This document shows, piece by piece, positions 1-62,945 of a stretch of DNA of 64,000 nt. This DNA is from Protoeuglena noctilucae. Lineage: Eukaryota. The position numbers and the translations under genes are program-made. Location: positions 62,001 through 126,000 of the forward strand of contig OY253684.1 of NCBI GenBank assembly GCA_958009085.1, in the 5' to 3' direction. The notes under the pieces are model-generated. The model did not search any database and was not told where the DNA came from. It worked only from the letters and a program-made list of their open reading frames with translations. The stretch's first letter is position 1, and every line of letters starts with the position of its first letter.

Positions 1-2087
1 GGCCTTCGTGCTGCGATGGAGGAGGTGGAGGAGTTGCGTGCGCAGGTGGAGGTGATGGGCAACTACGACCGCACGAGGGGTCAATTAGCAAAGGCCATGG
101 CGGGGATGCAGGCGGAGAACGCCAGGCTCAGGGAGAGGCTCAAAGAGGCCACGGGTGAGTGAAGGGTGGGGGTGGCAGTGGGGGTGGTGTTAGGGGTAGC
201 AGTGGGGGTGGCAGCAAGGGTGGCAGCAAGGGTGGCAGTGGGGGCAGCAGTGAGGGTAGCAGGGGGGGTGGCAGTGAGGGTGGTGTTGAGGGTAGCAGTG
301 AGGGTGGCAGTGAGTGTGAGAGCGCGACTGTTGTGCAAGAGACAGTACCACTCACCGCCCCTCTCCCCGCTCTCCCCCCCCGCAGTGGAGGGTCCCGGTG
401 CTTCCCGCCTGGTCCGCGAGTATCAGATGAACGACCAGCTGCAGCTGCAGCGGAGAGTGGCGCGGGCGGAGGCAGAGGCGGAGGTGCTGCGTCGGCAGAT
501 GGAGCAGTTGCACGAGTGGGCGGCGGCCACGGGGGCCAGGAGCCAGGCGGAGATACGCAGGCTGAGGGCCGTGGTGGGGAGGTGAGAGAGGGAGTGGTGG
601 TGGGGGTGGGGGTGGGGAGGTGAGGGGGAGGAGGGTTGTGGGGGTGGGGAGGTGAGGGGAGGACGGTGTGGGATAGAGTAGAGTGACTACATAGCAATGT
701 GATACGGCATAACTTGCGTCGCCTCTCCATAACTGCACCCGTCTGCGCCCTTGTTAAGCTTATTATCAATCCACCCCACTCGTGTCTTCATATCCAACGC
801 AGATACGAGCCCCAGTCGGTGTCACCACCCCCCGGCATGGAGTTGGCTCTGAGGCGAAAGCCACGCAGTGCGGGGGCACTGGGGCTGGCACCCATTGCAC
901 GCCTGGGCTCTGCGGGGGGGCTTGGGACAGCGGGGAGGGGGTTTGATGTTGCGAGTGGCAGTGGCAGAGGCGGTGGGGGGGTTGTGGAGGGTGAGAGTGG
1001 TGCAACTGCGGTGGGGGGCAAACCCTGGGAGAGGGCGAGGCGTGGGGGTGACGGTGCAGGGACGGACTGGGCGGGGGTGGCGCATGCGGCAGCTGTGGTG
1101 GAGCACACGGGTGGGATGGGACTGATTACGGGGCTCATGAACGATCCGTCTGCTGCGGAGGTGCCGCGAGATCGCATACACAGGGGGGCGGGGGTGGGTG
1201 GGGGGGTGGCAACAGGGGCGGGTGCGGGTGGGGGGGTGGCGCCAGGAGTGGGGGCAGGGGCAGGGGCAGCAGCGGGGGTAGCAGTGGGGTTAGGAATGGG
1301 GGCAGGAACACAGGCAGCCCCTTCTGCAGTGCCTGGTATGGGCCCAGTGGATGGTGTGCCTGGCAGGGGCGGTGGTCGTGGGGTGCGTGGTGGGTCGTCG
1401 CTACGAGCGAGGGACGCTGTGGTGCGGCGGAGGGAGGTGGCGGCCTTGAAAGAGGGGTCTGGGGGTGTGGGGGATGCTAAGAGTGGTGGAGAGGTTGAGC
1501 TTGGGCCTGTGGATGTCGATGCGTTGCTGCGGGCGCCGGTGCTGGCGGGGCCAAGGAGCGAGGAGCGGTCCGCGGGTCGGCTGTTCGGTTTGAATGCGCT
1601 GGGGGAGCCTGAGCCGGAGCTGGCGTTCCTGCCGGGGCTGGCGATGTGGGCGGACGGGCCGGACGGGAAGGGCGGGACGAAGGCACTGCCCGAGACGGTG
1701 TGGAACCAGGTGGGATAGGTGTGGGGGTGGTGGGGATGAGTGTAGAGATGGTAGAGATGATGTGGAACCAGGTGGGGATGTGAGAAGAGACGGTGTGGAA
1801 CCAGGTGGGTGTGGTGGGTGGTAGAGATGGTGTGGGAGCAGGTGGGTTTAGTGGGTGTAGTGCGTGGGGATGGCATGAGCGAGGGTGATGGTATGCGTGG
1901 CACCAGTTAATGTTCACCACTTCATGTCCATTGCGATGCCACTACACACTCATCATGGTCACTCGTGCCTGTGCAGTTCGCCAGGGGCACGTCGATGACC
2001 AACGCAGCCGTGGCGGGGGCAGGCGGGGAAGCAGAGGGCGATGGGGGAGGGGAGGATGAGATTGGAGACGGGATCAACCTGCCTTGA
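1..2087 (+). CDS. Partial gene (5' end outside window): coiled-coil protein of unknown function with a Gly/Ala-rich C-terminal part
   Basis: Exons <1-154, 386-581, 803-1709 and 1977-2087 join in frame across GT-AG introns (ACG G|GTGAGT..CGCAG|TG GAG; AG|GTGAGA..CGCAG|A TAC; CAG|GTGGGA..TGCAG|TTC) and end at TGA 2085-2087. Heptad-like E/R/A/Q-rich segments (MEEVEELRAQVE..., QLQRRVARAEAEAEVLRRQMEQL). Confidence 0.7.
162..312 (+). repeat. Degenerate 12-bp minisatellite (GGGTGGCAGTG-type) in the 5' half of an intron
   Basis: About 12 units of (G/A)GGGT(G/A)GCAG(T/C)(G/A) at a 12-bp period. Related arrays occur at 37940-38050 (reverse complement) and 59935-60116. Confidence 0.85.
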
Positions 2088-2878
2088 TGCACATATGTCG
2101 TGCACATGGTTCATTCGCTCTTCTACTTGCAATTGCAGTCACTGCGCATAGGTTAGCTGAGCCTGCCTTGATGCATATCGCATGGTACACTTGCAAGCGC
2201 ACTGGTACTGGTTGATAGGGCAGAGCTTAAGATGGTGCAGGTTTGTTTGTCTTTTGGCCACATCGGCAGTCTACGTGGCAGTTGCTTGAGTTGCGTGCTT
2301 CGAATTGTGTGCTTCATAGCTCAGGCACTACAGGGCCGCCGCTAGGCATGCCCAGCACTAGACAGGCAAACGAAAAGGACTGGGGATAAGGTCCGCTGTG
2401 GGTGGTGGCTGGTCTGGGCTATACGACAAAGGTAAAGGCAGCGAGGGTTCGTGTGGCAAGGGATGGCGCAAATGTAGCATCGTCAAAGGCGTAACAGACA
2501 GCGATCGCTGAGGGGTCTCTCTGGGCAGTCCTGACGCGGGAAACGGAGAAAGGGCCGGGAAACGGGGCTGTGGCTGCGGCACAGGGGTGTGCGCATGCGT
2601 GCATGCATACACGCATGCCTGCCGCGCTCACATCGCAGTTACGCATGCGTCAGGATGGGGGCCGGCAGGGTCTCACGCACTCGCATCGACCATGCTGCCC
2701 CTCTCTCATGCCCTCTCATGCAGCTGCGCCCTCTATATGACACAGCATCCCCTCTCATACCACAGCACTGTACATGTGCGCGCTCACATGCAGCGCGGCG
2801 CCCCTCCCTCCCTCACACAGCATCCCGTCTGTGTCTCCAGAGACACACCCCGCACATGGGGTTTGCTGTGTGCGACTC

Positions 2879-5508
2879 TCACGCAGCGGCGCCCATCATG
2901 TCCCGGATGTCCGCCTCCGGGTCCTTCAGGTTGGGCGTCTTGAGCCCCCAATTGTCCACAATCAGCTGCACGGCGTCTGGCGTCAGGAACGCGGGGAGCT
3001 TGGGCCCCAGGCGGATGTTGCGCACGCCCAGGTGCAGCAGCGTCAGCAGAATGGACACGGCCTTCTGCTCAAACCACGAGATGTCCAGCGAGAGGGGCAA
3101 AGAGTTGATGTCGGTGCCCAGCGCATCGGCCAGGGCGGAGGCGACCGCGATGGCGGAATAGGCGTCGTTGCACTGCCCCATGTCCAGCAGGCGCGGGATG
3201 GGGGTGTTGGGGAGTGTGCCGAGGTCGTGGTCGAAGAAACGATACTTGGCGCACCCCAGCGTGAGGACCAGCGTGTCCTGGGGCAGCGCGTCGACCAGCT
3301 CCGCGTAGTACTTGCGCTCGGGCTGTCGGCCGTCGCAGCCGCCCACCAGGAAGATGTGGCGCAGGTTGCCCTGGCTCACGGCCTCCAGGACCTGGGTGGG
3401 ATGGGGACAGGGTGGGGTGGGTTCACACGAGAATGTGGCTTGTGTGGGCTTTTCAAAGCACATGCACCGCTGGCCCGCCACTCTCATGCCAGTCCCCACT
3501 ACCCCCACGCCACTCGCCTTGTCCGCGACCGACAGCACCGTGGCGTGCCCAAACCCCACCAGCACCGTGCGGTCCTCCGCGTCCTCATCAAACCCCGGCA
3601 GCTCCATCGCCCTCTTAATCACCGCCGAGAAGTCCTTCTTGCCGTTACTGGCCACCACGTGCCGAACACCCGGCACCGCCATCATGTTGCCAGTCGTGAA
3701 GAGATTGTCCGCGTAGTCCGTCGGGATCAGCACGCAGTTGGTGGTCATGAGGATGGCGCCGGGGAGGTCGCTGAACTCTTTCTTCTGCTTGTACCACGCC
3801 CCGCCGTAGTTGCCGGCCAGGTGGGGGTACTTCTTAAGCTTCGGGTAGCCGTGGGCCGGGATCATCTCGCCGTGCGTGTAGACTGCGGGGGTGGAGGGGA
3901 GAGGGAGGGGGTTGGGAGGTGTGGGGAGAGGACGTGGGGTGCGTAGCGTTGTTAAGCGGACGAGTGCGGTGCGGCATGGCATGAGTGATGGCGAGCAAGG
4001 CACACCTACCACCCCATGCACACCATCACACCCACCCCACCCCACACACCACCCCTCACAACCCCCCCCCCCCCCCCCCGCCCCTCACCGATGATCCCCA
4101 TCCCCTCCGTCTGCTGCAGCAGCTGCTCCAGGTCCCTCAGATCGTGCCCGGACACCACGATGCACTTGCCCTTGCGCGGGGTGATGCGCACGGCCGTGGG
4201 CACGGGAGTGCCATATGTCTCGGTGCTGGCGCGGTCCAGCAGAGCCATGGTCTCCAGGTTCACCGCCCCCAGCTCCATCGCCATCGCCAGCACCTTGTCC
4301 ACGTCCTGGCTTGCCGAGGAGGCCAGGAAGCCCATCGCCTTCCAAATGAAAAGGTCGACCGTCTGGCTGCGGTAGCCCAAGTTGTCGGCGTGGTGGGCGT
4401 AGGCGCAAATGCCCTTGATGCCGTACGCGATCATCTCGTGCAGGCCCAGCAGCGTGTCGAGGCCGCGGGACCGCATCTCGTGGCGCCGGTGGCTGAGGCT
4501 GGTGCGGAAGCCGAAGGCGGTGAGGTCGTCGATGGTCGGGTGGTCGCCCGCGATGGCGCGGACGGAGACATGAGCGGGGTGCGGCGCGGTGTCGAACCAG
4601 GGGAGCGCGGGGGCGTCCACGGCGATGGCGCGGGGGAGGCCCAAGTTCACGGACAGGTTGGCTGCGGGCGGGAGGGGAGAGAGGGGGGTTGGGGTGAGGT
4701 GCGACGGCAGGTGTGTGAGGGGGTGCGGGGGTGCGGGGCGCCAAGGCAAATGCATTGATTGCGGGTGCATTGGGAGGTGAGGGGTGAGGTGGGCACGGGA
4801 TGTCCAGAAGCCAAGCCAAGCACAGTGCAACAGGTGAGGGGTAAGCAGGGCTGTTGACGAGCGTGCGTCTCTCAATCATTGATGGCAATTAGCAATACCA
4901 TCTCCACTGCTTCTCTCACCAGCCTTGGCGCGCAGGGCCTCAAGGTATCGATCAGCGGTGAGAATCTTGTCGGCAAGGTTCATTCCGTCGAAGTTGGTGT
5001 TGGTGAGGGTCGCGAAGATGGCGTCCTTCGTGAACTGCGAGATGACAGGAATGCATGGGGATAAGCATGACGAATGGATCAGGGCGCTTTAATAGGGTTG
5101 GTGCGGGCACAGGGTCGTTGGCGTGGACAGCTAGCATGTGGTCCCGTGGCCCCTCACCCTCGCGACGTCGTCGTCGAAGTACCCCGCCTGATCGTGCAGC
5201 GCCGTGGCGTTGGCGCCGATGCCCTTGACCAGGTAGATGAGCGCGTCCTGAAGGGCCGCCACATCGGGCGTCTTGCCGCACACGCCGGACTTCTCGCACC
5301 CGACGCCGTTCACCGTCTCCTCGCATTGCATGCAGAACATGCCGCTCTCGTTGTCGAAGGCCACGTCATTGGGAGGGACGATCTCGCGGCCGTCGCGGGT
5401 CTTGAAGCGGGCCGCCACGGTCGGGCGACAGACGGGGCGCGGGCGCGAGGACGGAGCGGCCCGCGCGGCCGCCGGAGCGGCTGCCGTGCGACAGATAAGC
5501 GAGGGCAT
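2879..5508 (-). CDS. HCP: Hybrid cluster protein (prismane protein / hydroxylamine reductase) with a probable organellar transit peptide, 5 exons
   Basis: [23 protein letters not shown] (Cx2Cx8Cx5C), [76 protein letters not shown]. An Ala/Arg/Pro/Ser-rich extension precedes the Cys motif. Exons approx. 5508-5158, 5034-4920, 4661-4090, 3883-3518, 3391-2879. Confidence 0.96.
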
Positions 5509-7832: not shown

Positions 7833-10800
7833 TCACTGCCCCCTGCCCGTCTTGCTGAGGATGACCTGTGCCTCCTCGGATTGCATGAATGCCATGAAGG
7901 CATCCAGGAGGGCCATCTTGCGCTCTTCAGGGGAGGGGTCCCTGGGGGGAGCGAGATGGGGGGGATAAGGGTGAGGTGATGTGGGGGGGGCGATAGGGGT
8001 GGGGGAAGCAAAGCGGCGTGATCGGCATTCAGTCAACGAACTACACAAAGCCTGCAAACCCACACACAGCGCCTGCCCCCAACACCCGACCGCGCCTGAG
8101 GTCCTCCCTTCACCACCCCCACCTCCTCTCCCCCACCTGGTCCCACCCATCATCACGCCGCAGTGCTTCCTCATCCTCATCCTCTCCCCCGCACCCCCCA
8201 CCTGATCTTGCCCCCGTTGGCCGCCGGCGCCGCCTTGCCGCTGGTGCCGATGCAAGTAAACATTGCCTTGTCCGTGAAGTCGAACAGGTCATAGGCGGAG
8301 CCCACGTCGTCCACCGTGCACGTCTCGTACATGGTCACCAGGTCCCTGGGGTTGGGATTATGAGAGAGAGACAGCGTGAGACACATGGTAAGAGAGAGGG
8401 TCGTGTCTCCTACATGGTCACCCCAACATGCGCTCTCCCCAACACCCTACCCCACCCCACTTAACACCCCCTTCCCCTTCACCTGAGGCACTGGGCGCTC
8501 TCATCAACACCCGCTTCACTCCATCCATACATGCCTTCCCTCCCTTCTCAACCCACCTGAGGCACTGGGCGCTCTTCAGCGGCACCGCGTCCGACTGCAG
8601 GTGTGTCATCAGCGACAGCCAGTACCCGTTATCCTTCAAGTCACTCTCGTGTCTTGAAATCAACGTCCTCTTGGCCCGAGCCAGCTCCCGTGGGCTGATG
8701 GGGGAGGTCTTGAAGCCCCGCAGCACGCGAAGGCACGCCTGCAGGGCCGCATCAATCTTGGCGGGCTCGGAGGTGACTGGGGCGGAGTGAGGGGGAGGGG
8801 ATGTGGTAATCAATGGTGATCAGTGGTGAGTGAAGGGTTGTGTTAATTGCAGATGGATCTTCACCCACCCACTTACTTAATACCCACCCCGTCTGCAGCC
8901 GGTCAAACACTGCACATGCCACATGCTATAGACATACTGTAACTATTGCAACTGCACTATTGATATACAACCATTCCCATGCCTCTCACCCGACACGGAG
9001 AACCACCCCGTCTGCAGCCGGTCGAACACGGTGAGGTCGAACGACACATCGTACGTCAGACCCAGGCTGTCACGCACGGTAGTGAACAGCCGCGCGTTGA
9101 TGACCTCGCTCAGCAGCTGCAGGGTGGTGGAGCGGAAAAGGGGGTGGCCGCGGCGCAGGCGGTCGGCCTCCCTGCGCTGATCGGGGGTCATGCCCTCGTA
9201 GGCGTGTTCGGGGGGTGGGGGCGCCACGTCGCCCTTCACGATGCCCACCATGCGGGAGGGGTCCGAGAGGAGATCCGAGGGCTGGGGGGGAGATAAGGGG
9301 GGGGGGGGGGGTGAGTGGTGGGGTGAGGGGAGTGCGATTGGTGTGACAAATAGCGCAGCACAGCGCACGGTGGCATGCGCATCTGCATTGCGCAAGCACA
9401 TCGCCCCATGCGTTCATGCTACCTGCGCCTGTGGCAGAGACACATACACAGTACAGCCTACGTCAAGCACATCCACCCCATCGCCATCGCCCCTCGCCAG
9501 CCACGCCATCGCATGTCAGGCCACATCACACCCCCACCACCCACCACCCCTCCCTCACCAGCTTCCACCGGGGCGGCGCGGGCCCAGCGATGAACGCACA
9601 CGCCCTCTCATCGGAGTCCATCTGATGCCATCGCTGGTGAGCATTGGTGGGCTCGGGTGCGTGGAGCGTGAGGGGGGCCGTGTGGACCCAGCGGGGGAGG
9701 TCGCTGCTGGTGTCGATGGTGCCCAGGTAACGCAGGGCGCAGGCCTGGGGGGGGGAAGGGAGGGGGGTGATGGGGTGTTGTTGTTGTTGTGGGGGCGGCA
9801 GTGGGGGTGGCAGTAGCAGTGAGTGTGGGTGCACACCCACCCACCCACACCCAACCTCAACCCACTCACCTCCACCCTCTCCGGCTCCACGTCCCCCACC
9901 ACCGACACCTCGATGTTGTTGGACTGAAGGATGCGCGACACCACGGACTTGAGCTTGTCTGCACGGATTGAAAGTATCGCGGTGTGAGTGAGATTGTCTG
10001 CCATGGTGGAAATGCATTTGATTCATCTCTCATCCACTCTTCGCTCCCCACATACAATCGTCACCCAGGTCGAGCGCCTTGACGTCCTCACCACGTCACC
10101 ATGTTATACATCCATATAATCATCAAAATTGTCACTAATAACCCATCCTCACCCAGGTCCAGCGCCTCGATGTCCTCGGGCGTGGGGTCCCGGAACCGCC
10201 GGTCGTCTTTGATCATCGCCCCCATGATGCGGTTGGCAGTGGCCCTCTCCAGCGACTTGTCGGTGCTCCGGAAGTGGCTGGCGAACATCTGCTTGGCGCG
10301 GTCGAACGCCACGGGGTCCCACCGGGGGTGGCGCAGGAACTGGTGGAGCAGCTCAAAGGCACCCTCCATGCCGCCGTTCTGTGATAAGAGGGGGGGGAGT
10401 GGTTTGGGGGAATGGATTGTTTACTGAATGGATTGGGAGTGTGTGTGTGTGCGAACCACAGGTCCATGATGACGAGCTCTGTCTCATTTACTTCACTCCA
10501 CCTCTCACATCTATTATACTCTCTCATCTACTCGATACCCCCCTCACCTCCACCGCGAACCGCAGGTCCATGATGACGAACTCCTCGTCGCTGTCGATCA
10601 TGCAGTTGATGAGCTTGCTAATGCAGAAAAGCTCCATCTGCTCCCGCTCCCACGACCCCACCGTCCCGGACTCAGACACCGCGCGCACCCCCACGGCCAC
10701 AGAGCCGTACCCCGCGCCGGGCTCGGTCGGGTCCTCCACACTGCGACCGCCGCCCGCCACCAGCCGAAGCACGGCGCCCTTGGGCTCGTTATCCTGGGTT

Positions 10801-11767: not shown

Positions 11768-11967
11768 NNNNNNNNNNNNNNNNNNNNNNNNNNNNNNNNN
11801 NNNNNNNNNNNNNNNNNNNNNNNNNNNNNNNNNNNNNNNNNNNNNNNNNNNNNNNNNNNNNNNNNNNNNNNNNNNNNNNNNNNNNNNNNNNNNNNNNNNN
11901 NNNNNNNNNNNNNNNNNNNNNNNNNNNNNNNNNNNNNNNNNNNNNNNNNNNNNNNNNNNNNNNNNNN
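11768..11967. other. Assembly gap (200 N, probably a placeholder length)
   Basis: A run of exactly 200 N interrupts the SPP coding sequence. Confidence 0.99.
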
Positions 11968-43913: not shown

Positions 43914-43949
<36 letters not shown>

Positions 43950-46233: not shown

Positions 46234-46497
46234 CGCGTCGCGGGAAAGCCATATGTAGATTCGTTGAACGTAATTATCGCCACCAAGGACTCGAGAACAG
46301 GTCATCGTTGTCCCGCGTATCGTGCGGGCCGAGGTGCTTGGCCAACGTGCCGCGCGCGTGGCGGGATCGACGGGCGCTGTGATGCAAGCGTCTTCGATGT
46401 GTCACGTGATGTGTCACGCAATTGCTGGGCCAGGCAGCGTCGCACCTGGGCGGCGAGCGATCCGTCCGGCTGCGGCGCCCCGAGGCAGCCGAGCAGG

Positions 46498-47605: not shown

Positions 47606-47859
47606 GGGGCGGGAGTGGGGGTAGCGTGCCGCTCAACGCAAATATCCTGGCCTGCCTGTAACCATGGGTTTCGAATTTCAACGTTAGCGGCAGGCCATAG
47701 TACGTATGTCAATGCACACGCTGTGGCGGTACAGTTAATGCTACTATGCATGGGTCAAGACGCCATGGCATGGCTGGCGGCGCCGATTGCACGGTGAATG
47801 GTGACACATCAACTGCCTGTCATGTCCGGTAACACCATTTGATGATCCCATTTTCCGTC

Positions 47860-50800
47860 TCAGCCCCCCACCGCCGCCCGCACCACCGCTGCAGCGTCCC
47901 TCAGCCCCGCGTGCCAGGGCAGGGCATGGGCTGACTGGGCCTGCGAGACAAGACAGATGAGTGAAGTTGCTTTATCGCATAACTGTTGCTATCATCTGCT
48001 GTCATCTGTGCATCACGCCCACCGCCATCACCAACCCCAGCACTGCCACTACCAGCCATGCCACCCGCATCACCCACCCACACCCACCCATCCCCATCCT
48101 CACCAGCGCCACCGCCGCCGCCCCCATCGCCCCCTCTCCCAGCTCCCCCACCCCCGCCGCCCCCGCCAATGCCAGCAGATGCCTCACATCCCCATTCAAA
48201 TCATCCCCACGCGCCGCCCCAGGCTCAAACGCAGCGATTGTTGCACCACTGCTCACGTCCACCCACGCCGCCCCCGCCCCCGGTGTCCCGCAAACACGTG
48301 GGGTGGTCATGGCAGCCGCCACACCGGCCCCGCCACCCCCCCGCAGCGCAGGGCTCAGTTTCGCGACCCTCCCGCCCACTGCCGCCGCCAGCACCCGCGA
48401 TCGCTCCGACCAGGGGGCGATGTGCACGGCCGCTCCCGCATGCACCCTCGCGCGCACTGCAGCTGCGCTCGTCACAGCATCCCCCGCCCCCGCCGCTCTC
48501 GCCGCCGCCGCGTGGCTCGCCGCGAGGGTTGCGTGGCTCCGCACCCGCACCCGCATGGCTGCATCCCCCCCCGCTTTGGCTGCAAACGCCTCCGCACACT
48601 CCACCACCATCGCATGCCTGTCCTCCGCCTCTCGCAGACTCTCTGGCTGCCCTGCCGCCCCCGCTTGTGCCAAAAACGCAGCTTTTGCATCGTTAGGCAA
48701 CGCCGCAGCTGCCACCCGCAACGCACAGGCAGCGAGGAGGCAGTCAAAGCACCGCGCCACACCCGCACTCCACTGCGCATGGGCTGACGCTGAATGGGCG
48801 TCGATAGCAGGGGTGCCATGGGTAGCAGTGGTGGTGGAAGATCCATGATGGGTGTAAATGTTTGTGCTTGTATTTGCAGTGCTGTCCGTGTCTGGCTGTC
48901 GATAGGATGCGTCGATGGTGACTGCGATGGCATCGTCGATGCGCGATGCGGCGCAGAGGGCGGTGACGAGGGCAGAAGCCAGATGGGCGGAGTCGGGTTG
49001 GCCTGGGGGGAACAGGGGAATGGGGGGAGAGTGAGGGGGTGAATGAGTAGGTGAGGGTTGGGTGGGCAGAGTGGGTGGACAGCAGAGTGACACGCCACAC
49101 ACCAATTACACCCGCCCATCACATACACACACCATTTAGATATACACATGAACACACGCCTCCCGCCCCACCCCCCACCCCTCACCTCTCCCCTCCGCCG
49201 CCCCCACCGCCACCCGCAGCATCCCCGCCGCCCCTGCCGCATCGCCCTTGGCCGCCACCACGCACGCCGCGCCCGCCATGGCCCAGGAATCCCCCGCCTT
49301 CTGCATTTCCAGATTCTCATACAGCATCCCCGCCTCCTCCAGCTTGCCCATTCTGGCGAGCACGCGTGCCAGACTGACGCGCACCGCGGCTGACACCGCG
49401 TCAGGGTCTGACGTGGGGCCGCGGTCGGACGGGACCTGAGTTGGGGAAGGGAGTTTGAATTTGAATGTGAATTTGCATGCCAGAAGAGTGGGAGAGGTGG
49501 GGGGAGGATGACAGTGAGCATCAGTAGTAGCATCAGTAGCATCACTAGACTAGGGACAGTTGCAACGGTAGCCATGCCACCCCTTACAACCACCCGCTTT
49601 CACACCCGTCACCATCACCACCACCCCGCCCCACCCATCCCTCCACCGTGACCGTCACCCCCCCCTGGTCGCCCCCACCACCACCACCACCCCTCACCCC
49701 TCACTTTCAAAATAACCACTATCCAACTCCCTTACACCCCCCCCCTCCCCATCCCTCACCGTGACCGTCACCCCCCCCCGGGTCGCCCCCACCATCGCGT
49801 GTGCTTTGGACAGACTGACCAGCGCCCCCTCCATCAGCCCCCTCGCTTCCCTCGCCAGTCCCAGCGCGTGGTGAGCCGCTGCGTTCCAAGGCTCAAGCTC
49901 TGCCCATCTTGATGCGGTGGGGAGGAGGAGGGGGTGGGTGGCGTGGCCAAGGGAGAGGGCGCACGTGGCGGCGTAGTGGAGGGCCTGGGGGGGTGGGAGG
50001 AATTGATAATGTGATTTTACAATGCAGTGTGAATATACACTATTATAGAGCGCTGGTGTATGAGAGCGAGAGTGCGCAGGTGCTGGCGTAGTGGAGGGCC
50101 TGGGGGGGTGGGAGGGATTGATAGTGTAATTATATAATGTGAATGTACATTTACTATATAGCATGGGTGTATGAGAGGGGGTGGGTGGCATGGCCAAGTG
50201 ATAGTGATAGTGATAGTGATAGTGATAGTGATAGTGATAGTGATAGTGATAATGATAGAAATAGTAAATGTAAAAGTAATAGTAATAGTAATAGTAAAAG
50301 GAATAGTAATAGTTAAAGTAATAGTAATAGTAATAGTAATAGTAATAGTAATAGTAATAGTAATAGTAATAGTAATAGTAATAGTTATAGTAATAGTAAT
50401 AGTAATAGTAATAGTAATAGTAATAGCAATAGTAATACAGTGCTGCACTCGCAACCGTTCCCGCCACCCTCACCACTCTCACCCATACACACCCCCCACC
50501 CACCCATTCCACTCACCTCCGTCCCGCACACCATACCCAGCGCGTGCCGGGCGAACTCAAACGCCCCCCTCACATCCCCCGCCCCCGCCGCCATCCCCGC
50601 CATCGCCTCCCACACCCCCGCATAATCGGGATCCTGAGCCCGCGCCTGCTGCCAGCATCTTTCTGCCAGATTAGTCTGTTGCATATTCGCGTATAATCGG
50701 CCCAACGCCGTCCACGCCCCCGCATTGCCAGGATCCAATTGCAGTGCTCTGGACAGCGCATATTCCCTTTCAGGTGGGGTGGTAAGAACGCTGCTCAGGG

Positions 50801-53800
50801 CGAGCCAGGCGGAGGGGGAGGTGGGGCTGCGGGGGGAGATGGATGGGGGGGGGTGGATGAGTGGGGTGGGGTGTTGGGGTGGGGTGTGGGGTGTTGGGTG
50901 GGGTCTGGGGGTGGGTGGCGTGGAGTGTGCAGTGTGGTAAGAGTGGGGATGGTTGAGTGGTGTGGGGTGTAGTAAGAAAGTGGCAGTAACAGTCACTGCC
51001 ACTACCCCCTTCCCCATACCCTCACTTACCCCCCCACCACCCCACATACACCCACCCCACCCCACCCCACCCCACCACCCCCTACCCTCACCTGGCCTCC
51101 ACCGCCCCCCTCATCAGTCTCCTGCACACCCTGCTCCTCTCCTCCGCCACCCTTTCATCCTCCCCCGTGATTCTGCGCAAGTCGCTCTCTGCCATCAGTG
51201 ACGCGCCCACGTCCACCAACACGCACGCCCTGGGTGGGTGAGAGGTATAAGAGATTTGGAATTGGAATTGGAATCTGCCAATGTTTGGATTGAAAAGTGA
51301 TGATAATGTACTCGATTGTCGTTACTGTTGATCTCATCTTGTCCCCTGATCTCACAAACAGTGACATAACACGAACACCACATCACACACGGACTTGGCA
51401 TATACACTAACACCCACACATTTCCCCCTCACCTATGTGCCCTATCCCCAGGTCTCAAAAACAGCGACTTGGCATACGCTCTCCTCGCCATCTCCACCAT
51501 CGCTGCTCTGCGCTGGTAGCCCGCCAGAATGGCACTGGCTGCCTGGGGTCCCTCGGTCAGCAATCGAAGGGCGTAGTCTATGGTGTCCAGGGGGGGCTGG
51601 GGGGAGAGAGAGAGAAGAGAGTGAGATGGGTGGATGAGTGGGAGGAAAAGGGCATCGCATCTTGTTTGTTGTGTGTGACCCACCCTCACATCGCCACGCC
51701 CCTGACTCCCCACCTCCCCTCCGCCCACCATCTCAGCTGCACATACCTTCACAACCACCCTCACATCTACACACACCCTCACACCCCCCAACCACCCCCT
51801 CACCTCCCCCCCCCCCTCGTGCACCGGCACATGCCGATGCATGGCCAGTGCATCTCCCAGCGTCTTCCACCCCCCCGCCACGCCCCCATCTCTCGCACAC
51901 GCCGCCTTTGCCGCCGCCACCGCTCTCGCAAGCTGCTTGGACGCCAGCCCCACCGCCCCCCTTGCAAACGCCTCATCCGCGCTCGCTAGCAACGCCTGGG
52001 CTAGCCCCGTGAGTGCGGGCACGCAGTGTTTGTCGATTAACAGTGCTTGTTTGTGCAATTCGAGGGATTCATCGGTGTCGTTTTCGTAGAGGGCGATCGA
52101 TGCGGAGAGCACGCGTGGGAGGGAGCGGGTAGGGTCCAGGGAGGTGGCGGTGAGGAGGGCCTGGGGGGGAGTGGGGTGGGGTGATTGTTAGTAGATATTA
52201 CTAAATGTGAAACGGTTATTGCTAAGTGGGGTTTGTGGCTATTGTTGAACGGGCGTTGCAGTGTGAGAGAGTGGGGTGGGGTTTGAGTGACATGGGGTGG
52301 AGGGAGTGGGGTAGGTCACCACTCAATGCTCATTGCTAGCTCCTCACTGCTAAGTTCCCCACCCCCACCCCCTCACCATTTTCGCCGCATCCGCCATCCC
52401 CAGCCCCACGTACGCCCTCCCCAGTCCCTCCCATGCGTCTGCGTCATTGCTGTCCATGCGAGTGCACCTCTGATACGCGCCCATCGCCTCGCGCCACTCC
52501 CCGCGCTTCTCCAATAGCTGAATATGAGGGGGGGGGTGGGTGGTTGAGAGGGGTGAGATTGAATGAGGGGTGAGAGTAAGAGAGGGGTTAGGAGAGGTGG
52601 AGTGGTTGGTACTTGTGTCCTGGTTTTGTCAACAGCCCATACCTGACCACCACCACCACTACCAACCCCTCACCTGCCCCATCGCCTTGACCGCCCACGC
52701 CGCCCTCTCGCTCCTCCCCGCCATCGCCCGGCACAGCCGCTCCACCACTCCATCCCCCGCCCCCTTCGCCACCAACAGCGCACACAGCCGCCGCCCCGCC
52801 TCCGCGCAAGCAGGGTCCGCGGCGAGCGCCTTTTGGTAGTAGCGCTGCGCGGATTCGATATCGCGACCTCTCTCGCAGTCGACGCCCAGCCACGCGAGTG
52901 CCGCGCCCTGTGCCACGCCTGCGCTGGCTGCTGCGAGCTCGACCTCGGTGCGGGCGCGGGTGAGGAGGGCGGCGGCTCTGGGGGGGGGGGGGGTGGGGGG
53001 GGGTTGGTTGCGGTGGGGTGGGGTAAGGGGAGGTGGTGTGGGGTGAGGCAGGTGCATTCACTTACCAATGTTAACCTATCTAACTGAAACTCCCACTCCC
53101 ATATCAACCACCCCCCTCACCTCTCCCTCTCCTCCTCCCCCACCCCCTCTTGCCCCAGCAGCCCCCTCCGCACATCCAACAACGCGCGCGCCATCACCAG
53201 CCGCCATGCCCCCACATCGCCATCACTGGGCACCACCACAGTCGCCGCGGATAGCAGCGCCGATGCGCGCACGCAAGCGGGGTTGCACAGCGATGCGGAG
53301 GGGAGCAGGGGGGCTGACAGACTGGCACGGCGAAGGCTGCGGGTGGGGGTTGAAAAGGAGTGACTGAGATACTTTGAATCGACTTGCTGTCAATTGTGAT
53401 ATGGATTCCACATGTAATTGTACATGGCGTGGCTTCTGTAAGCTTTGTAAATTATCATGCACCGTTCGGCACGCTCTCAGCCGCACGCTCGCACCCCACA
53501 ACCACCCTCACCCCACACCCCACACCCCAACCCCCCCCTCACCTCTCCTGCGCTCTCCCCGCCGCCGCCACCGCTCTCCCCGCCGCCCTCGCCGCCACCG
53601 CACCCTGCCCCTCCCTGAACGCCCCCTTTGCTTCCCACGCCCGCACCCACCCCTCCACCCCCCCACACACCGCATCCGCCAGCATCCCCACCCACTCCCC
53701 CTCCTCCACTCCCTCCCTTTTCAACCCCTCAATCACCCCATTCACATCCCCCGTCAGCCCCCTCAGCTCCCGCACTGCACCCTCATGCACACGCACTCTG

Positions 53801-56800
53801 GTCACGTCACTCCCCAAACCCCCCTCAGGTGCCACCAGCTTGGCTGTCAGCTCCATACCCGCTGCAGCGCGCGCCAAGCCGGGCAGGAGAGTGGGAGCGG
53901 ATGCAATTCCATGTGCGTTGGGTGACAACCCTATCGCCAGCCCACCAGCACCGTCATTGTTATCGGCACCACCCCCAGTCACCGCCTCCCCACTGCCCGC
54001 ACCAGCGCTGCTGTGGTTATTGTTACCATCGGCACCGGTCACGCCATCACCAGTAATAACGTTGTTACTAACACTGTTACTAGTATAATTACTGTTGTCA
54101 CGGCCAGCGCTGCTCGTGCCACCACCCCCACCCCCACCCGCACCCGCACCCCCACTACCACCCTCCCCCCCCCCATTCAGCGCATTCACTCCGTTCCTGC
54201 TGAACGGCTCTTGCGTGGCGTCGGCGATCAGCACCTGTGCCGCGATCAGCGACAGCAGAGTGGGGGCGTCGTGGCAGACTTGCTGGGCCTCCCGGACGGC
54301 CGCGGCGTGGCTGGGGGGGTGGGAGAATAGTGGGGTTTATGAGAGTTGCTTATAATTTACTAGCACAGTTCCTCGCTGGGCCTCGTGGACGGCCGCGGGG
54401 TGGCTGGGGGTGGGGAGAGAGGATATGGGTTAATGAGGGTGATGAAGGTTGATGATAAGACTAGCACGCTTGCTTGCTGGGCCTCGTTCAACTGTCATGC
54501 CTGCACCCTCAACCTCCCCACCCACGCGTGCAGGACCCCTCATCATCACCCACTCATGCACCACAACTCACCTCTGCAGCGCTATCAACGCCCGCGCTTT
54601 CACCACCCTCGCCGTGGCCGCATCGACCCTGCAGGCCCACGGCAGCTGGGAGGGAACGCGTGAATCCCGGGCCAGTTTCTCTGACTTGTCGCGCACCATC
54701 TCCACGGACATCTGAGACGATTTGATGGCATCGTGGAAGCGGCCGGACTGGGGGGGGGGGGTGGGTTAGATGGGGTGGGACCGGGTGGTGGGGTTGAAAA
54801 AGATGGTTACGCTCAGTCAGCAACAAAAATATGGAGATAGCTTTGTCATCAGTCACCCAATGCAAGTGGGTCCGAACGCGACACCCCCACAGCACGTTCC
54901 TAATATCGTGCCCCCCACTACACACCCACTGTCCACGCACCTGCGTCGCCGCCATCACTGCAGCACAACATGACCTACATTGTATACAATGCCCCCCTAC
55001 CACCCACGCACCTGCATGGCCGCGGCTGCTGCCGCGAACTTCTTGCTGATTTGAAACTTCTCGTCCGCCCCCCTCCCCTGCAGCAGATCCTCTGCTTTGC
55101 TGATCAGGCGGGGGCGGTCGATGGGGTCGGCGGCCATGGCGACGAGCGTGCCCAGCAGCGCGGTGCCCAGGGCGTGCTGAGAGTGAGAAGGGTGAGGGGA
55201 TAAGGTGAGTGAGTGGAGTGGAGTGGGGTGTGTGGGTGTGGGCCGCAACCACTGCTATACACACTGCAATACACAGCTGCCACTACAACAGCACGTCATC
55301 GCCGGCCCATTTGCCGCCTGTGAGGGGGTGGTTTACATCGTCGAGAAGGTCCTCAGATTCACTCACCCTATCTTGCAGCTGCCACTACACACCACCATGC
55401 ATGCCATACATAGTATACTCACCCTGGCCTGCAGCTGCCACGGCGTGGCGTGCGCGGCGTGCGCTGCGACGCGGCACACGTCCGGAGACCACGCGCAGGG
55501 CAGCAGGGCGTCTGCGCTGTCGAGCGCGGCCATCAGCAGCGCCCTGTTCACTGTGCCCGTCGATCGCAGCACGCCCACGCACCAGTCGAGGCAGCGGAGG
55601 TGGCCGGGGGGGCCCTGGGGTCCAAAGAGAGGGGAAGAAGGGAGGTGAGAGGGGCGATGTGTTGAAAGAGGAGGGGTGTGGGTGGCAGTGCTTTGAACTG
55701 GGTGTGCGTGATGATTGCTCTTCTGTAGGATTCACTGGGTGAATGCTCTTCATTAACCATCGAGGGTTCATGTACCATCCACGATCAACCCTCTCACCAT
55801 GCTCTTCTGCAGGTCGATCATCGTGTTCATGTATCGCTGCGATTCGGGCGACAAATCGTCCACGCACGCGCGCTCCAAAAGGCCACACGCCTGCGACTGA
55901 CGGTCCTGCTTAGCGGTGCCGTCCCGCAAATCCCGATAGCTGTTGACGGCCCACTCGTACACCTTGGCGCGGATGCGACGGCTGCGGTGCGGCCGGAGAG
56001 ATATATGGCGGTTCCTCTTTGCTAGCAGGCAAGCGCGAGCGTGTGTGACCGAAACGCGATCTTCGACGCCTCGCATTCGCCGATCGAGTTCTTTATGCAA
56101 TAATTGTTATCACAGTGCTTATAGCTCCCCGCAAAGACCCTCGCCTGAGGTCGTCGCCGACCCATCCCCCCGTCCGGTCCAACACGTCCGCCAGCACCCG
56201 CGCCGCCGCGATGTCGCCCTCCTGCCGCCCCGCGTGGTCCTCGTGCGCTCTGCAGAATTTCTCCAGCTCCTCGCCGACCCTCGCGGGGTCGTTGCCGTGC
56301 GACGCGAGGCTCAGGAGCTCCTGCAACGCATCGTGCTCCACGCTCGCGCCGGTTGCGCAGGCGCGCAGAGCCACCGGACATTAAGATGACACATTCGACA
56401 CATTACTCACACCGTCTATGATAATCTCTTACCGCGGAGACCTCCATGTAAGCCTGGAAGTCGCCGCACGCCTGCGACACGATCGCCAGCCCCCGCATGG
56501 CGTCGGGCCGCGTGGGCTCGAGCTGAATCGCGCGGCGCAGCACCCTCATGGCTTCTGGAAACTCCCCGCAATCGCAGTGGACCCGGCCCAAGAGCAGCAA
56601 CGCGTGGTAGTGCTGCGAGGGAGGGGACAGTCCAGGCACGCTCTGCGCGACCCGCCGGCCCGGAGAGGTCGCGTAAAGTGCATCACAAGCAAGAATACAT
56701 GACGAATATGCGATCGGGCAGGCATAACAGGCGCGGGATCCGGTCGCGCACCCGGGGGTCTGCCTGGAGCGCAGTCCTGCAGTGGAGGACGCACGCGGAC

Positions 56801-57238: not shown

Positions 57239-58598
57239 ATGGCGGCGCAGGAGCGCGTGGAGGAGGCGTGTCGGGCCTTGGAGGATTTGTTGAGCGTATT
57301 CAATGACGAGGTCCAGGAGAAGACGAGCACCAAAGGCGAGCCGGATGCGTGGATGTCTCAGCAATGCATATCAACCGCATCCTCGCGCCTTCCTCACGCC
57401 ATCTCACGCCCGCGCAGAGGAGTTGCAAGCCGCCGTCGATCGCGCCAAGAGGAGCGCGACCAACGTCGGCGTGGCGTGCTCGGGCGGTGCCGCCTCGGCC
57501 GCTTCCGTCGTGGACCTCTTAGGTGCGCGGGCGCGCGGCCGGAGCACTCTTGCAGCATCTAAATGCATACTTATCATGTATAATATCTATCTCAATTACA
57601 TACGTTTCTCTTCGATGCGTATCGCGGATGCTTCGCCCCGCAGACGAGGTATACGCCAGCGTTCGCGCGGTCGTGGAGGCGTGCGCGGGCCTGGGGTCCT
57701 TTCCCGGTTCAGAATTGCGTTCGGCGTTGAGTCAGGCCACCGCCGGGTTCGTCGGGAGCTTCGCGCGGGCGCTGCGGGAGGCGGCGGCGGGCGGAGACCG
57801 CGTCACGCTGCGGGTGGGTCAGTGCTGGGCGGAGTGCGACGCAATGCGCAAAGCGCCGACGGACAATCGCTCGGCGCTGACTCGCGCGTTCGCACGTTTG
57901 CTCAAATCGATGACGTCAGCGGTCGCGGAGCTGGGGGATGCGGGGGGCGGGGGGAACGAAGCGCGGGGCAGTGCGCTGGCAGAGGGTGGCGGCATTGAGG
58001 TGGTGGATTGGGATGAGGGGAGCAGTGAGGGGGGGGAGGAGGAGGATCCAGTGGCGGCGGGGGTGGCTAGGGAGAAGGGACGCGTATTGTGTGACAAGTG
58101 TGTGGGGGCGATCAAGGCGTACATGCGGACAGTGGTGACATCGGGTGAGGGAGTGGAATGGGGGGTGGGATGTGAGGATGTGGGACGTTAGATGGTAGAT
58201 GTGGGGTGAGGGAGTGAAACGGGGCGTACGATGTGTTATATCCCACTCTCACCACCACACACGTTTGCGTCCTAGCCATACCCAACGCTTGCCATCACAC
58301 CCCGACACCCCCCGCAGTGGCGGTGAGCAAGGACGACCGGTGCGCGTTGGGCGAGGCGGTGCTGGGGTCGTTGCGGCAGGCGGAGGTGCGACTGGAAGCA
58401 ACGGTGGCGAGCCTGCACGCGCCGATTGAGCCAGAAATGGCGATGCAAGAGGCGACAGCGCTAGTGGAGGGAATCAGGGCGGTGGATATCGATTTGCGGG
58501 CGTATAGCTTGGATGTGGATGTGGCGGGGATTATGGAAGCGTTGGGGGCGATGAGGGGGGCGCTGGGGGAGGTGGGGGGCCTTGATGAGGATACGTGA
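57239..58598 (+). CDS. GCIP / cyclin-D1-binding protein 1 family protein
   Basis: AKRSATNVGVAC; GSELRSAL; RVGQCWAECDAMRKAPTDNRSALTR..MTSAVAEL (family motif GxVWxxCDxxxxxPxDN); acidic linker; VASLHAP. Three introns, the first GC-AG; TGA 58596-58598. Confidence 0.8.
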
Positions 58599-58643
58599 GA
58601 TGCGGTTGGGGAGGGAGTGTTTAAATGTGCGTGATGATTATCA

Positions 58644-58648: not shown

Positions 58649-58747
58649 TGTCTTGGTCATCATACAATGACAGTACCATGGCGAATGCTGCGGCGATGTG
58701 AATGGTCGACGCGCTATTCAATATCATCATGGTATGTACGTGACTCT

Positions 58748-61700
58748 TCAATCGAGCTGGTCCATCCATGCATCATCCTCATCCCCCTCATCTTCACTCC
58801 CCCCATCACCATCCCCACCAACCCCACCACCCATGCCGCCCCCACTCCCCAACGCAAAGCCCATCGACCCAGCAAGCGACCCCGCGGGCCCGGGCATTCC
58901 CATCTGCGCCTCATAGCTCGCCAACAGACCACGCAGTGCCCCCACATCCACATCCACCGGCCCCTCACCACCACCGCTATTGGTGACACCACTACCACCA
59001 CCACCACTCTTAACTCCCTTAGCCCCCTTCACGTCGCTTTTCCTCAATTCTGTCTCCATCGCTTCATCATAGGCCTCTCGAAAAGCAATGTCCAGATCTG
59101 TTGACCCCACACCCACGCCGCCCTGGTTACCCACCACCCCCGCACGCCCCCGCCTCATCCCTGCCACCCCCACTTCGCCCTCGCTCTCACTGTCCCCATC
59201 CTCTGATGAACCATCGCTCCCACTTATCCCACCCTCACTGCCGCCCTCACTGCTACCCTCGCTGCCATCCCCACCGCTACCCACCGACGCCCCCACCTCC
59301 TCCCCCAGCGCCGCCGCCAACTCTCGCAGAAATCCGTCCGCATCCAAACCCACGGGTCCCACCCCCCCAGGCACCTCGGCCCCTTCTGGCCCTGAATCAG
59401 CTGCCAGAAAACGACCCATGCCCTCCAGGAGGGCGCCCAGGTCCAAAGACGAGGACTGCGGGTGAGGATATATCTATATATAGATATATATTGATACTAT
59501 GTATAATATGTATAATGTGTTGTGAGTTATGTATGTGTGTCTGTGGTTATAAATCTCGACGAAATATAACAATGGCAAACCACGTTATGATTTGAATACC
59601 CCAACACGCTGCCCACCCCTCACCTCCGCCCCCTCCCCGCCCCTCTCTCCCCCCCCACCCCTCCCCCCCGCCGACTCCGCCATCTCTTTTTGTCTCATTC
59701 CCATTTCCGCATCCAACAGCGCACCCCCCTCCTCCATCCACTCCTCCCCATCCACCGACCCCTCTTCCATCGCTGCATCGTTGGAATACTCCATTGGCGT
59801 GTCATTTGAATTATCCATGGATGCTTTCTCGAATGACGCGATGATCTCCTCGATGCGGCGGCCGGGGGCAGAGGCGCGCTCTTGCATGGCCCGGTGAGCC
59901 TGCGGGGAAAGTGAGGGTGGAGGTGGTGTTGATAAGGGTGGCAGTTAAGGTTGGGGTGGGGGTGGCAGTGGGGGTGGTGTTAAGGGTGGTGTTAAGGGTG
60001 GTGTTAAGGGTGGCAGTGGGGGTGGGGGTGAGTGTGTAAATAAGGGTGGCAGTGGGGGTGGCAGTTGGGGTGGTGTTGAGGGTGGCAGTGGGGGTGGGTG
60101 TAGGGGTGGCAGTGAGAGCAGCATTGCAAGAGGTTGACTAAGTGCCACTGCTTAACACCCCACCCAATTATCGCCCCATCTCCACCCCACCCCCATTCAC
60201 CTCTGTGCTCTCATATGCCTCCCTCGCCCTCCTCTCCCTCTCCCGGTACTCCACCGACCCCTCCACCAGTCCCAGGTAATACCCCGCCCTCGTCAGCGAC
60301 GCTTGAAACCGCCCCCACCCACCACTGCTCCCACCGCCACTCATACCAACCCCCCTCTTTTCCCCACCCCCACCGCCACCCCCACTGCCACCTCCACTGC
60401 CACCCCCACGGTCACCCCCACTCCCCTCCATTTTCTGACTTCTCTGGCACAGCATCTCCAGCCCCATGGTCAATTTGAATCCCAACTCTACCGCGCGACG
60501 ATCGGGGTCGCCCAATGCTGGCATGGGCACGCGTGCCTGTTTGGGCGGGTGGAGTATCTGCTGGGATAGTTGCGCGTAGAGGAATCTCGTGAAATGGATG
60601 ACGGCGGGGACGGGGGCGGTGGCGGTGTAGGGGAAGTGGGGGAGGGACGAGGAGGCGCGGAGCTCTTGGGGGTCTCTGGGGGTGGGGTGGGGAAGGGGGT
60701 GAGGAGATGAGATGAGATGAGATGAGGTTAGATGAGATGAAATGAAATGATATATGAGGCGAAATGAGCAAGTGCTAGGTTTGAATAATGCTTGAGTGTC
60801 AATGCTGGGGTCTTTGGTTGGGGTGGAGTGAGCGTTGTTGCATGGGTGGGCATGGGACGCTGGGTGTCATGGCATCTTGCCATTAATAACCATTCGATTC
60901 TCACATATATTAATTCGTTTCTAATAGCAAGTATCCTCACCTCATGCACACTGCTTCGACGGCAGGCGCGACGAGCTGTGGGTCCTGGCGGAGGATGCGG
61001 GCCACCAAAGGGGGGACGAGGCAGCGGGCGCGGTGGAGGGAATGGGAGGCGATCTGTGATGAGGGAAGGAGTGGGGTTGGTGGGTGAGTGAGAGTGGGTG
61101 GCGATGTAAGGTAAGTGAGAGTGGGTGAGGGGATAGTGGGGCGATGTGAGAGGAGGGGACGAGGCAGCAGGTGCGGTGGAGGGACTGGGAGGCGATCTGA
61201 GGGGAGAGAGAGGGGGGTGGGTGGGTAAAGTGTGGGTGGGTGGGTGAGAGAGAGACAATGAGATGAGAGAAGAGGGGTGAGGGGTGAGGGGAGCGTGGCC
61301 GAGGGTGGCGGTGAGGGCGGGAGTGGCAGAGAGACCAAACTAGCCAAGTGCGTCATATTGATGCTCACAATGCGCATCTATTCCAATCCGTACCTCACCC
61401 GCAGCATCCACTCACAACCACTCCACCACTCCACCCTCACCCTGGGCACCTCCCCCATGCATTCATTGAGTGTTCATTGTTCACTGATACCACCACTCCG
61501 CCCCTCACCCGTGGCACCTCCCCCAGTCTCCTCTGCAGCATTGCCTGCGCCTCGTCGGGCAGTCGCGTGAGCACAGATGCCGACTGCACTGCGCCCAGGC
61601 ACTGGGACAGGCTGGGGCGGGGGGGGAGCTGCGGGACAGGGTGGGGAGGGAGAGGGTGAGAGTTAGTTAGTGAGTGTGGACTGCTGCAAAGAAAAAAGCT

Positions 61701-62945
61701 TTACGCCATTCGCTACTCACATTTACACACATGAACCACCCTACGTTGATTGCCATACAATCACCCTCCGCACCTCTTTTGCCACCTTGGCTGGTGGCAC
61801 CACACCACATGCTATCCTCTCCTTTATACAATAAACACACATGCTATCCTCTTCCCAACTAGTACTACACACCAACACTCTCATCTCACCTCTCTCGCCA
61901 CCTTGGCCGGCGGCACCACATGCGCCTCTCCGTTATACACAAACACGCGCCCCTCGGCTGTCTCCGGCTGCACCCACTTGGGCAAAGCAAAGGCGGACTC
62001 GATCAGAAGGAACTCCCCGTCGTTGTCGAACACGCGGGCCACGGAGCCGGGGACGCGAACGGTCACTTGGAACTAAGGGGGAATGGGGAGGGATAGTCAG
62101 TGATTGGGTATGGCGAAGGGTCACTTGGAACTAAGGGGGAAGGGCGGGAGGGAGTTAGTGCGCGTGAGAGGGGGTGACGATATGAGCGCACGGGTGAGGG
62201 AATGCTGAGCGATGGTTGGTGGCACCGCACATTGGGAGTTGTCAGGGAGGGAGGTGAGAGTGTGCGTTGGAAATGCAGCAAACGCTACCATTACTCTCTC
62301 TCTGCTGCCCCCCATCTATGCTACACTGCGCTCACCAGCACATACGTGGCCAGCCAGTCGTCCTCGACGTTGTCGCCGAACTGCATCGTGCCCCAGAGGT
62401 GCGGGACATCGCCGGCGCCCCTGCAGACGCGAAGAGAGCGCAGCTGGCGAGACAAAAGGCCTTGCACAAGCGTCTCACAGCCAAGCGTGCACGCCGCGAG
62501 GCATCTCCGGCATCAACGACGTCGCGATGTTACATTATTTACATAATGCTACAAATACATCGCTCACCGGCCGTCCGGAGCGTCGATCGGGGACGGGGAG
62601 TCGGTGCTGCGGCGCAGAGCGAAGGGATCCCGCTGCCATATGTAGCCCCGCGCGACCTCCGCCAGGACCGTCATCGCCTCCACCTCCAGGGACGCGAGAG
62701 ACGATTCCGCATCCTGGCCTGGGGACGCAGACGAGCGAGGTTGATCCGGCAACGCGCTTGTGAGCAGTTCTCCGGCGGCGGAGAGACGCGTCCGCGAATC
62801 TGATGTCACACATGTGTACTCTACGAATATAAGCAAACGCTGCGTCGCCCCATGTCTCACCGGGCGCGGGGAAGAGGAAGAACGTCGCCGCGTTGGCGTC
62901 ATGCTCGAGGTCGTCCAGCCCGAGCAGCTCGCGGACGCCGGCCAT
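58748..62945 (-). CDS. ECD: Ecdysoneless (ECD; SGT1 domain) protein
   Basis: YIWQRDPFAL; LWGTMQFGDNVEDDWLATYVL; VFDNDGEFLLIESAFALPKWVQPETAEGRVFVYNGEAHVVP; LRQDPQLVAPAVEA; ELGFKLTMGLEML; WGRFQASLTRAGYY..EGSVEY; YDEAMETEL; PVDVDVGALRGLLASYEAQMGMPGPAGSL. Confidence 0.92.
59935..60116 (+). repeat. Degenerate 12-bp minisatellite (AGGGTGGCAGTG / AGGGTGGTGTTA), intronic
   Basis: 12-bp period visible across the 3' half of an ECD intron; same family as 162-312. Confidence 0.85.

Follow-up and report, generated by a model that had tools for sequence, protein, structure and literature searches.

Across a 64-kb stretch of Protoeuglena noctilucae contig OY253684.1 (assembly GCA_958009085.1, positions 62,001 to 126,000; hereafter the window), introns begin G-rich and end C-rich when read in the direction of transcription, and the silent sites of the neighbouring exons follow a matching wave, from C-ending codons after the acceptor to G-ending codons before the donor. 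The intron wave and the exon wave were both confirmed as real within this window, from which all of our results derive and which has 65% G+C and carries intron-rich eukaryotic genes packed densely on both strands. We propose, with a probability of about 0.5, that the wave consists of two separate splice-site-proximal compositions, each partly built by duplication or slippage at the intron edges and each spilling over into the exons.

Two sets of introns were used. The first comprised the 15 RNA joints listed, out of 27, for positions 36000-55999; these came from spliced RNA contigs (four marine metatranscriptome runs) and were thus picked by RNA evidence rather than by composition; all 15 corresponded to GT-AG or GC-AG introns. 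The second comprised 107 internal introns (median length 184 nt, GC 0.61) predicted by a self-trained two-strand hidden Markov model (HMM) written for this analysis, with a 3-periodic Markov model for exons and one strand-symmetric background for introns and intergenic DNA. Because the background was shared and splice-site scoring was limited to positions -3 to +6 and -5 to +1, the HMM had no preference for G-first, C-last introns beyond those bases. It found 13 of the 15 RNA-verified introns exactly, missed the other two (40872-41208 and 41341-41502), placed one acceptor wrongly (at 44801 instead of 44684) and probably fused some neighbouring genes. In Pfam scans, which were run on single exons and not on whole spliced proteins, profile coordinates were consecutive across predicted introns for the Prismane, Actin, PIG-L, PGAP1, M16_C and LeuRS editing domains. 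From each intron end, 10 nt were cut before skew was measured, and 2000 matched GT/GC..AG pseudo-introns in exons or intergenic DNA served as the control.

In the RNA-verified introns, the G-versus-C skew of the 5' third exceeded that of the 3' third in 15/15 cases (means +0.42 and -0.46; binomial p = 6e-5), with a positive 5' third in 12/15 and a negative 3' third in 14/15. The predicted introns behaved likewise, the 5' third exceeding the 3' third in 97/107 (p = 5e-19) against only 43% of the pseudo-introns; their mean skews by thirds were +0.33, -0.02 and -0.38, the 5' third was positive in 80, the 3' third was negative in 90, and 44 were strongly bipartite. The earlier note on this DNA, made from the sequence alone, had described exactly such introns, and the description is borne out by both sets. 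It had also proposed a metaplot of skew against distance from splice sites; within the window, this profile peaks at the splice sites and decays with distance, falling from +0.60 at 0-20 nt to +0.14 at 100-120 nt from the donor and standing at -0.47 and -0.43 over the last 40 nt of the intron (94 introns). With all positions included, the skew steps exactly at the junctions, from +0.24 to +0.60 at the donor and from -0.43 to -0.04 at the acceptor. An annotation-free scan gave the same picture, since 41 of 47 G-to-C switches within 200 nt, and none of 33 C-to-G switches, fell in introns, the latter spanning exons instead. The G-then-C pattern was identical when read on either DNA strand, and A/T skew was small and without consistent pattern. 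The RNA-verified introns are as follows.

36754-36948, + strand: intron
37812-38104, - strand: intron of the actin-related gene, strongly bipartite, with one long predicted hairpin
38299-38474, - strand: intron
38569-38696, - strand: intron
38904-39063, - strand: intron with GC donor
39637-39787, - strand: intron with weak skew
40071-40275, - strand: intron with weak skew
40872-41208, + strand: intron with the weakest gradient (-0.02 to -0.20), missed by the HMM
41341-41502, + strand: intron with weak gradient, missed by the HMM
41723-41997, + strand: bipartite intron of the leucyl-tRNA synthetase (LeuRS) gene
42601-42806, + strand: intron
43109-43284, + strand: intron with GC donor
43434-43657, + strand: intron
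43950-44178, + strand: intron
45488-45701, + strand: intron with GC donor

Seven introns had been named as examples in the earlier note. All seven open with GTGAG and a G-rich run and close in a C-rich tract, and spliced RNA contigs support two of them, 41723-41997 and 37812-38104. The pattern thus stood at these places, but four of the positions were off by one base (the true introns lie at 3883-4088, 9745-9869 and 44447-44684). In the intron given as 50848-51091, the donor at 51091 is clear, but the proposed 3' end lacks an AG. The five named introns outside the RNA-verified set, with their skews by thirds where measured, are listed here.

155-385, + strand: predicted intron (+0.75/+0.74/-0.14); a 12-nt minisatellite (GTGAGGGTGGCA-type, 166-318) forms the 5' part, and the 3' end is rich in C
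3883-4088, - strand: intron of the hybrid-cluster-protein gene, strongly bipartite (+0.96/-0.10/-0.85); the Prismane profile runs from 231 to 234 across it
9745-9869, - strand: intron of the M16 peptidase gene (+0.57/-0.67/-1.00); Peptidase_M16_C positions are consecutive across the exons
44447-44684, + strand: intron with GT..AG ends; RNA contigs resume at 44682, and the HMM placed the acceptor at 44801
50749-51091, - strand: predicted intron with clear donor 51091 and uncertain 3' end

The wave continued into the silent sites of exons. Ten exons were flanked on both sides by verified introns, nine of them with a known frame, and the third-position skew of this set was -0.04 in the first halves and +0.35 in the last halves (Fisher p = 5e-7), rising in 8/9 exons. 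At four-fold sites of 78 predicted internal exons, (G-C)/(G+C) by exon fifths from acceptor to donor was -0.15, +0.03, +0.21, +0.41 and +0.49 (chi-square 191), the share of G among G- and C-ending codons climbed from ~0.42 to ~0.75 across the exon, and the skew rose in 61 of 76 individual exons. Donor and acceptor proximity act on four-fold sites independently and in opposite directions, with coefficients of +0.99 and -0.93, respectively, in a logistic model whose best decay was ~100 nt; in exons of at least 300 nt, G had a share of 0.47 over the 100 nt next to the acceptor and of ~0.70 over the 200 nt next to the donor. The claim that codon choice follows the intron wave was thereby upheld, and both codon strings quoted for it were found. 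A gradient is present also in the LeuRS exon 41998-42600, whose translation shares 79% identity with bacterial LeuRS, so that a recent origin of exon ends from intron sequence is not the explanation there. As separate observations, predicted last coding exons such as 2882-3391 (-), 36949-37317 (+) and 58318-58595 (+) had no four-fold G/C gradient, and the baseline G share varied widely among genes, from ~0.5 to >0.9. The exons concerned are these.

16789-18394, + strand: exon with a run of C-ending codons after acceptor 16788; called 'NEF1' in the earlier note, a name left unconfirmed by Pfam scans of these exons, which gave no match
41998-42600, + strand: RNA-verified LeuRS exon whose third-position skew goes from +0.05 (first half) to +0.33 (last half)
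44985-45033, + strand: exon end with G-ending codons before donor 45034, the earlier LeuRS example

The two intron ends differed in motif content as well as in base composition. GGG occurred at 0.071/nt in 5' parts and 0.014/nt in 3' parts of the 107 introns, and CCC at 0.075/nt in 3' parts and 0.011/nt in 5' parts. Donor-like decoys numbered 64 in 5' halves and 5 in 3' halves, and 105 of the 110 occurrences of GTGAG lay >80 nt from the acceptor. Its exact reverse complement, CTCAC, was the commonest branch-like pentamer, with 74 occurrences, 34 of them at 10-50 nt from the acceptor, where CTGAC, CTAAC and CTTAC each reached only 8-16; CTCAC is plausible as a branch motif. The score of the donor under a position weight matrix (PWM) rose with the G-richness of the 5' part (rho +0.50). 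GC-AG introns were frequent, with 3/15 in the RNA-verified set and 14/107 in the predicted set. This share is well under the ~60% GC donors given for Emiliania huxleyi (PMC4028052).

G-runs of this kind could form G-quadruplexes, and the earlier note had offered such structures as an alternative to pairing. Canonical (G3+N1-7)x4 motifs were present in 17/94 5' halves and 0/94 3' halves, and the C-strand equivalent in 22/94 3' halves and 4/94 5' halves, a distribution in line with an explanation in which G-runs near donors, and C-runs acting as template-strand quadruplexes near acceptors, would modulate elongation or splicing through quadruplexes or R-loops. However, the canonical motif occurs in about a fifth of introns and the gradient in 97/107, so the quadruplex does not hold as a general intron feature, and we regard this explanation, drawn from motif counts, as very improbable.

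The interpretation put forward in the earlier note was an intron-bridging hairpin, in which the G/U-rich 5' half would pair with the C/A-rich 3' half, joining the true splice sites and burying decoys; perhaps a G-rich exon end would also pair with the C-rich start of the next exon. That the halves are compositionally complementary proved correct, as the 5-mer frequencies of 5' halves correlated with those of the reverse complements of 3' halves at r = 0.87 (same-strand 0.21), and mirror pairs such as GGGTG / CACCC made up nine of the top fifteen 5-mers. The best duplexes between a 5' half and a 3' half, in any combination, averaged about -46 to -48 kcal/mol, and two RNA-verified introns (41723-41997 and 37812-38104) were predicted to fold, both by minimum free energy (MFE) and as centroid, into single long irregular end-to-end hairpins. 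Base pairs joining the first and last 40% of the intron averaged 22.7 in native sequences and 12.4 in whole-intron dinucleotide shuffles, and tracked bipartite strength (rho 0.64). Folding against half-wise shuffles, a check that the earlier note had suggested, gave a divided result with 14 shuffles per control. Native MFE was ~5% lower (mean z -0.88; 19/92 introns with z < -2; Wilcoxon p = 1e-8), including a z of -3.0 for intron 3883-4088, but half-wise shuffles bridged just as well (24.2 pairs), and the fold energies of half-wise and whole shuffles were the same (p = 0.29). For the two introns with end-to-end folds, the z-scores were only -0.38 (41723-41997) and -1.74 (37812-38104).

Further comparisons of the two halves weighed against a hairpin specific to each intron. 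The G-richness of the 5' end and the C-richness of the 3' end of the same intron were uncorrelated (rho 0.11, p = 0.26, and 0.09, p = 0.38; n = 102, which excludes only rho above ~0.3), and neighbouring introns of a gene correlated end for end at 0.28 and 0.38. Native half-pairs were no better than swapped ones when compared in a duplex matrix of 86 x 86 (51/86 residuals negative, p = 0.15; strong subset 19/35, p = 0.39). As half-wise shuffles bridge equally and native partners are no better, the pairing potential is a generic consequence of composition. Moreover, introns with swapped halves folded equally well (-65.7 vs -65.5), and pairing thus cannot explain why G comes first. Composition nearly doubles the predicted 5'-to-3' pairing, and this part of the hairpin claim stood, whereas a selected, intron-specific structure found no support.

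Precedents exist for the bridging hairpin. Lin et al. (2016; PMC4691745) describe teleost (AC)m-(GT)n intron-bridging introns and human GGG...CCC introns, which resemble the introns of the window in having complementary low-complexity sequence at opposite ends with predicted bridging, and in the human class also in a small extra stability over shuffles. The key evidence in fish is that the repeats co-occur above expectation, whereas the two ends vary independently here; the introns of the window thus lack the co-occurrence that defines the bridging introns of Lin et al. That class is further characterised by splice-site pairing that depends on the repeats and by splicing without U2AF2. In another report, one human intron was still spliced after its C-rich motif had been replaced by a G-rich one (PMC2481429). 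Considering these results, a bridging hairpin is an unlikely account of the wave, modelled folds notwithstanding.

The earlier note had also invoked duplications, with the G-runs as putative stall sites behind them, and the duplications themselves are real. The last 12 nt of the upstream exon were found again inside the intron 23 times in 15/101 introns, against 3.4 matches expected and nearly all in the 5' half, and acceptor-side echoes numbered 8 against 2.15 expected. The recurring exon-end 12-mers point to junction duplication; the echoes look as if the exon-donor junction had been duplicated in tandem and the outermost donor were the one in use. Introns with echoes include 1710-1976 (+), 39231-39483 (-) and 49436-49759 (-). 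Tandem arrays, G-rich or C-rich and with periods of 12, 24 and 36 nt, were common in introns, and 28 of 31 kept the orientation rule; one 12-nt minisatellite recurred in different introns, presenting its G-strand where it lay in 5' parts and its C-strand where it lay in a 3' part. Arrays called by Tandem Repeats Finder (TRF) made up only 10% of intron sequence. The features that illustrate these points are the following.

1710-1976, + strand: predicted intron in which the last 12 nt of the upstream exon occur four times
39231-39483, - strand: predicted intron in which both flanking exons have echoes; the Actin profile runs from 156 to 160 across it
59925-60114, - strand: 12-nt minisatellite of the same family as 166-318, lying towards the 3' side of intron 59900-60200 with the C-rich strand as RNA sense

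The minisatellite (GGGTGGCAGTGG-type) is dispersed in either orientation over several genes, at 166-318, 37944-38049, 38609-38690, 59229-59282, 59925-60114 and 60362-60425, and its unit approximates the donor consensus minus one base. Two copies, 59229-59282 and 60362-60425, fall within exons of the HMM and may point to introns that it missed. An (AGTAAT)x40 microsatellite at 50197-50437, called a poly-tyrosine exon by the HMM, almost certainly lies in an intron.

Duplication of this kind could in principle yield the whole wave as a neutral by-product, with introns growing from their edges by duplication or slippage and copying the G-rich donor consensus (GTGAGGGG) and the C-rich acceptor side inward, while local mutation bias would carry the wave into silent exon sites. 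The excess of echoes on both sides, the many arrays, the correlation of donor score with downstream G-richness and the independence of the halves agree with such growth. However, arrays occupy a tenth of intron sequence and echoes are detectable in ~15% of introns; furthermore, neutral growth explains neither the synonymous gradient in the conserved LeuRS exon, nor the position-dependent orientation of the shared minisatellite, nor the skew steps at the exact junctions. Edge growth and mutation bias, taken jointly, are accordingly a doubtful explanation of the wave as a whole.

Descent from transposons, with the terminal inverted repeats of decayed introner-like elements giving a G-rich left and a C-rich right end, would account for the reverse-complement symmetry of the pattern and for the mirror k-mer vocabularies. 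Introner elements are present in Micromonas and Aureococcus, and the window resembles those cases in its marine, GC-rich, alga-like genome and repetitive introns. It differs from them in that all-against-all BLAST of the 107 introns revealed no multi-copy intron family, the only 8 similar pairs all reflecting one minisatellite. Native ends also matched no better than foreign ends, and target-site duplications were not systematically searched. An introner-like origin thus appears extremely improbable.

Considering these results together, we propose the following scenario for the reading introduced at the outset, that of two separate splice-site-proximal compositions. After the 5' splice site, G-runs and repeated donor-like motifs (GGTGAG, GGTGGG) would form a zone of up to ~100 nt. 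Before the 3' splice site, a long C-rich tract with branch-like CTCAC motifs would represent the pyrimidine tract of a GC-rich genome. Both compositions would extend into the flanking exons and bias synonymous codons towards G-ending or C-ending forms over ~100-200 nt. Some of the intron material would come from tandem duplication or slippage of junction-proximal sequence and of the 12-nt minisatellite, and such material would be kept only if donor-like motifs ended up 5' and acceptor- or branch-like motifs 3'. Directly observed are the base composition and where it occurs, the independent variation of the halves, and the duplications; we infer from the motifs that they may work as splicing enhancers, or may persist through selection against wrongly ordered decoy sites.

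Several points weigh against this scenario of two compositions. Acceptor decoys scored with a short PWM showed no asymmetry (43 vs 37). The idea that G-runs compensate for weak donors was rejected, as the donor score rises with G-richness. Local mutation bias may contribute to the wave, and the silent-site range of 100-200 nt exceeds the expectation for exonic enhancers. Ten predicted last exons had no C-bias after the acceptor (G at 112/167 sites in the first 100 nt vs 264/383 elsewhere), which misfits a simple acceptor-proximal effect, though this sample is small and comes from the least reliable gene models. Finally, 92 of the 107 introns rest on our own gene model of one 64-kb window.

A bolder variant is a selected, genome-wide polarity code, in which every donor would lie in G-rich and every acceptor in C-rich sequence and the two would pair generically as the transcript emerges. 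We consider such a code quite unlikely, and equally its corollary that four-fold sites up to 100-200 nt into exons belong to it and that introns are zipped by structure and not by intron-specific sequence.

The wave is an unusually strong form of a splice-site-linked composition that is known, more weakly, from GC-rich vertebrate introns; what is unusual here is its strength, its near-universality in the window and the four-fold-site gradient. McCullough and Berget reportedly described G triplets as intronic enhancers in small GC-rich vertebrate introns in 1997. The introns of the window likewise are short and GC-rich and carry runs of GGG after the 5' splice site. In contrast to those vertebrate introns, the zone here reaches up to ~100 nt, consists largely of donor-like repeats and characterises the majority of introns in a marine, alga-like eukaryote, where an equally strong C-rich 3' zone matches it; its enhancer role is putative. 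With GGG near the 5' site and CCC near the 3' site of short GC-rich introns, the introns show the compositional feature of the G-run/C-run enhancer class, in which mutated motifs make splicing less efficient. Zhang, Leslie and Chasin (in 2005) are said to have found complementary flanks around high-GC human exons, C-rich upstream and G-rich downstream, as is the case here; a four-fold-site gradient inside exons is not known to be part of their report. For human introns, Murray et al. (2008; PMC2481429) present intronic enhancers of both a G-rich and a C-rich kind, situated upstream of pyrimidine tracts that are weak. Both motif classes thus occur in GC-rich introns in either system, but in those human introns both lie upstream of the pyrimidine tract, whereas here they occupy opposite intron ends. 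A G:C stem-loop was considered there for the human introns, and mutagenesis did not support it (PMC2481429). The limited literature searched contained no description of such a wave in an alga.

Single-exon Pfam scans placed three genes in the window with the extents below and also identified PIG-L, M16 peptidase, AN1 zinc-finger, RING, PGAP1, TPR and SGT1-like proteins.

2882-5508, - strand: hybrid-cluster protein gene (Pfam)
37689-40380, - strand: actin-related protein gene (Pfam)
40670-46000 (40.7-46 kb), + strand: bacterial-type LeuRS gene (Pfam)

A metagenome scan with the 200-aa translation of a LeuRS exon returned only intron-less bacterial LeuRS loci, with up to 79% identity. The gene in the window has at least 9 RNA-supported spliceosomal introns and is presumably an organelle-targeted nuclear gene. 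Immediately downstream of the LeuRS model, a protein-kinase domain at 47041-47595 (+) probably represents a gene of its own, fused to LeuRS by the HMM. An assembly gap of 200 N lies at 11768-11967.

If the wave is under selection, a large share of silent and intron sites in this organism would be constrained by splicing and not by translation, with consequences for gene prediction, codon-usage models and transgene design in GC-rich algae; it could further serve as a natural test case for whether proteins or RNA pairing act at G-run and C-run ends, a question that is open for GC-rich human introns. A polarity code, if true, would mean structure-assisted pairing of splice sites outside vertebrates and pervasive silent-site constraint. 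Should the wave have arisen merely through duplication and slippage at junctions, as a by-product, it would be a record of how introns grow from their edges.

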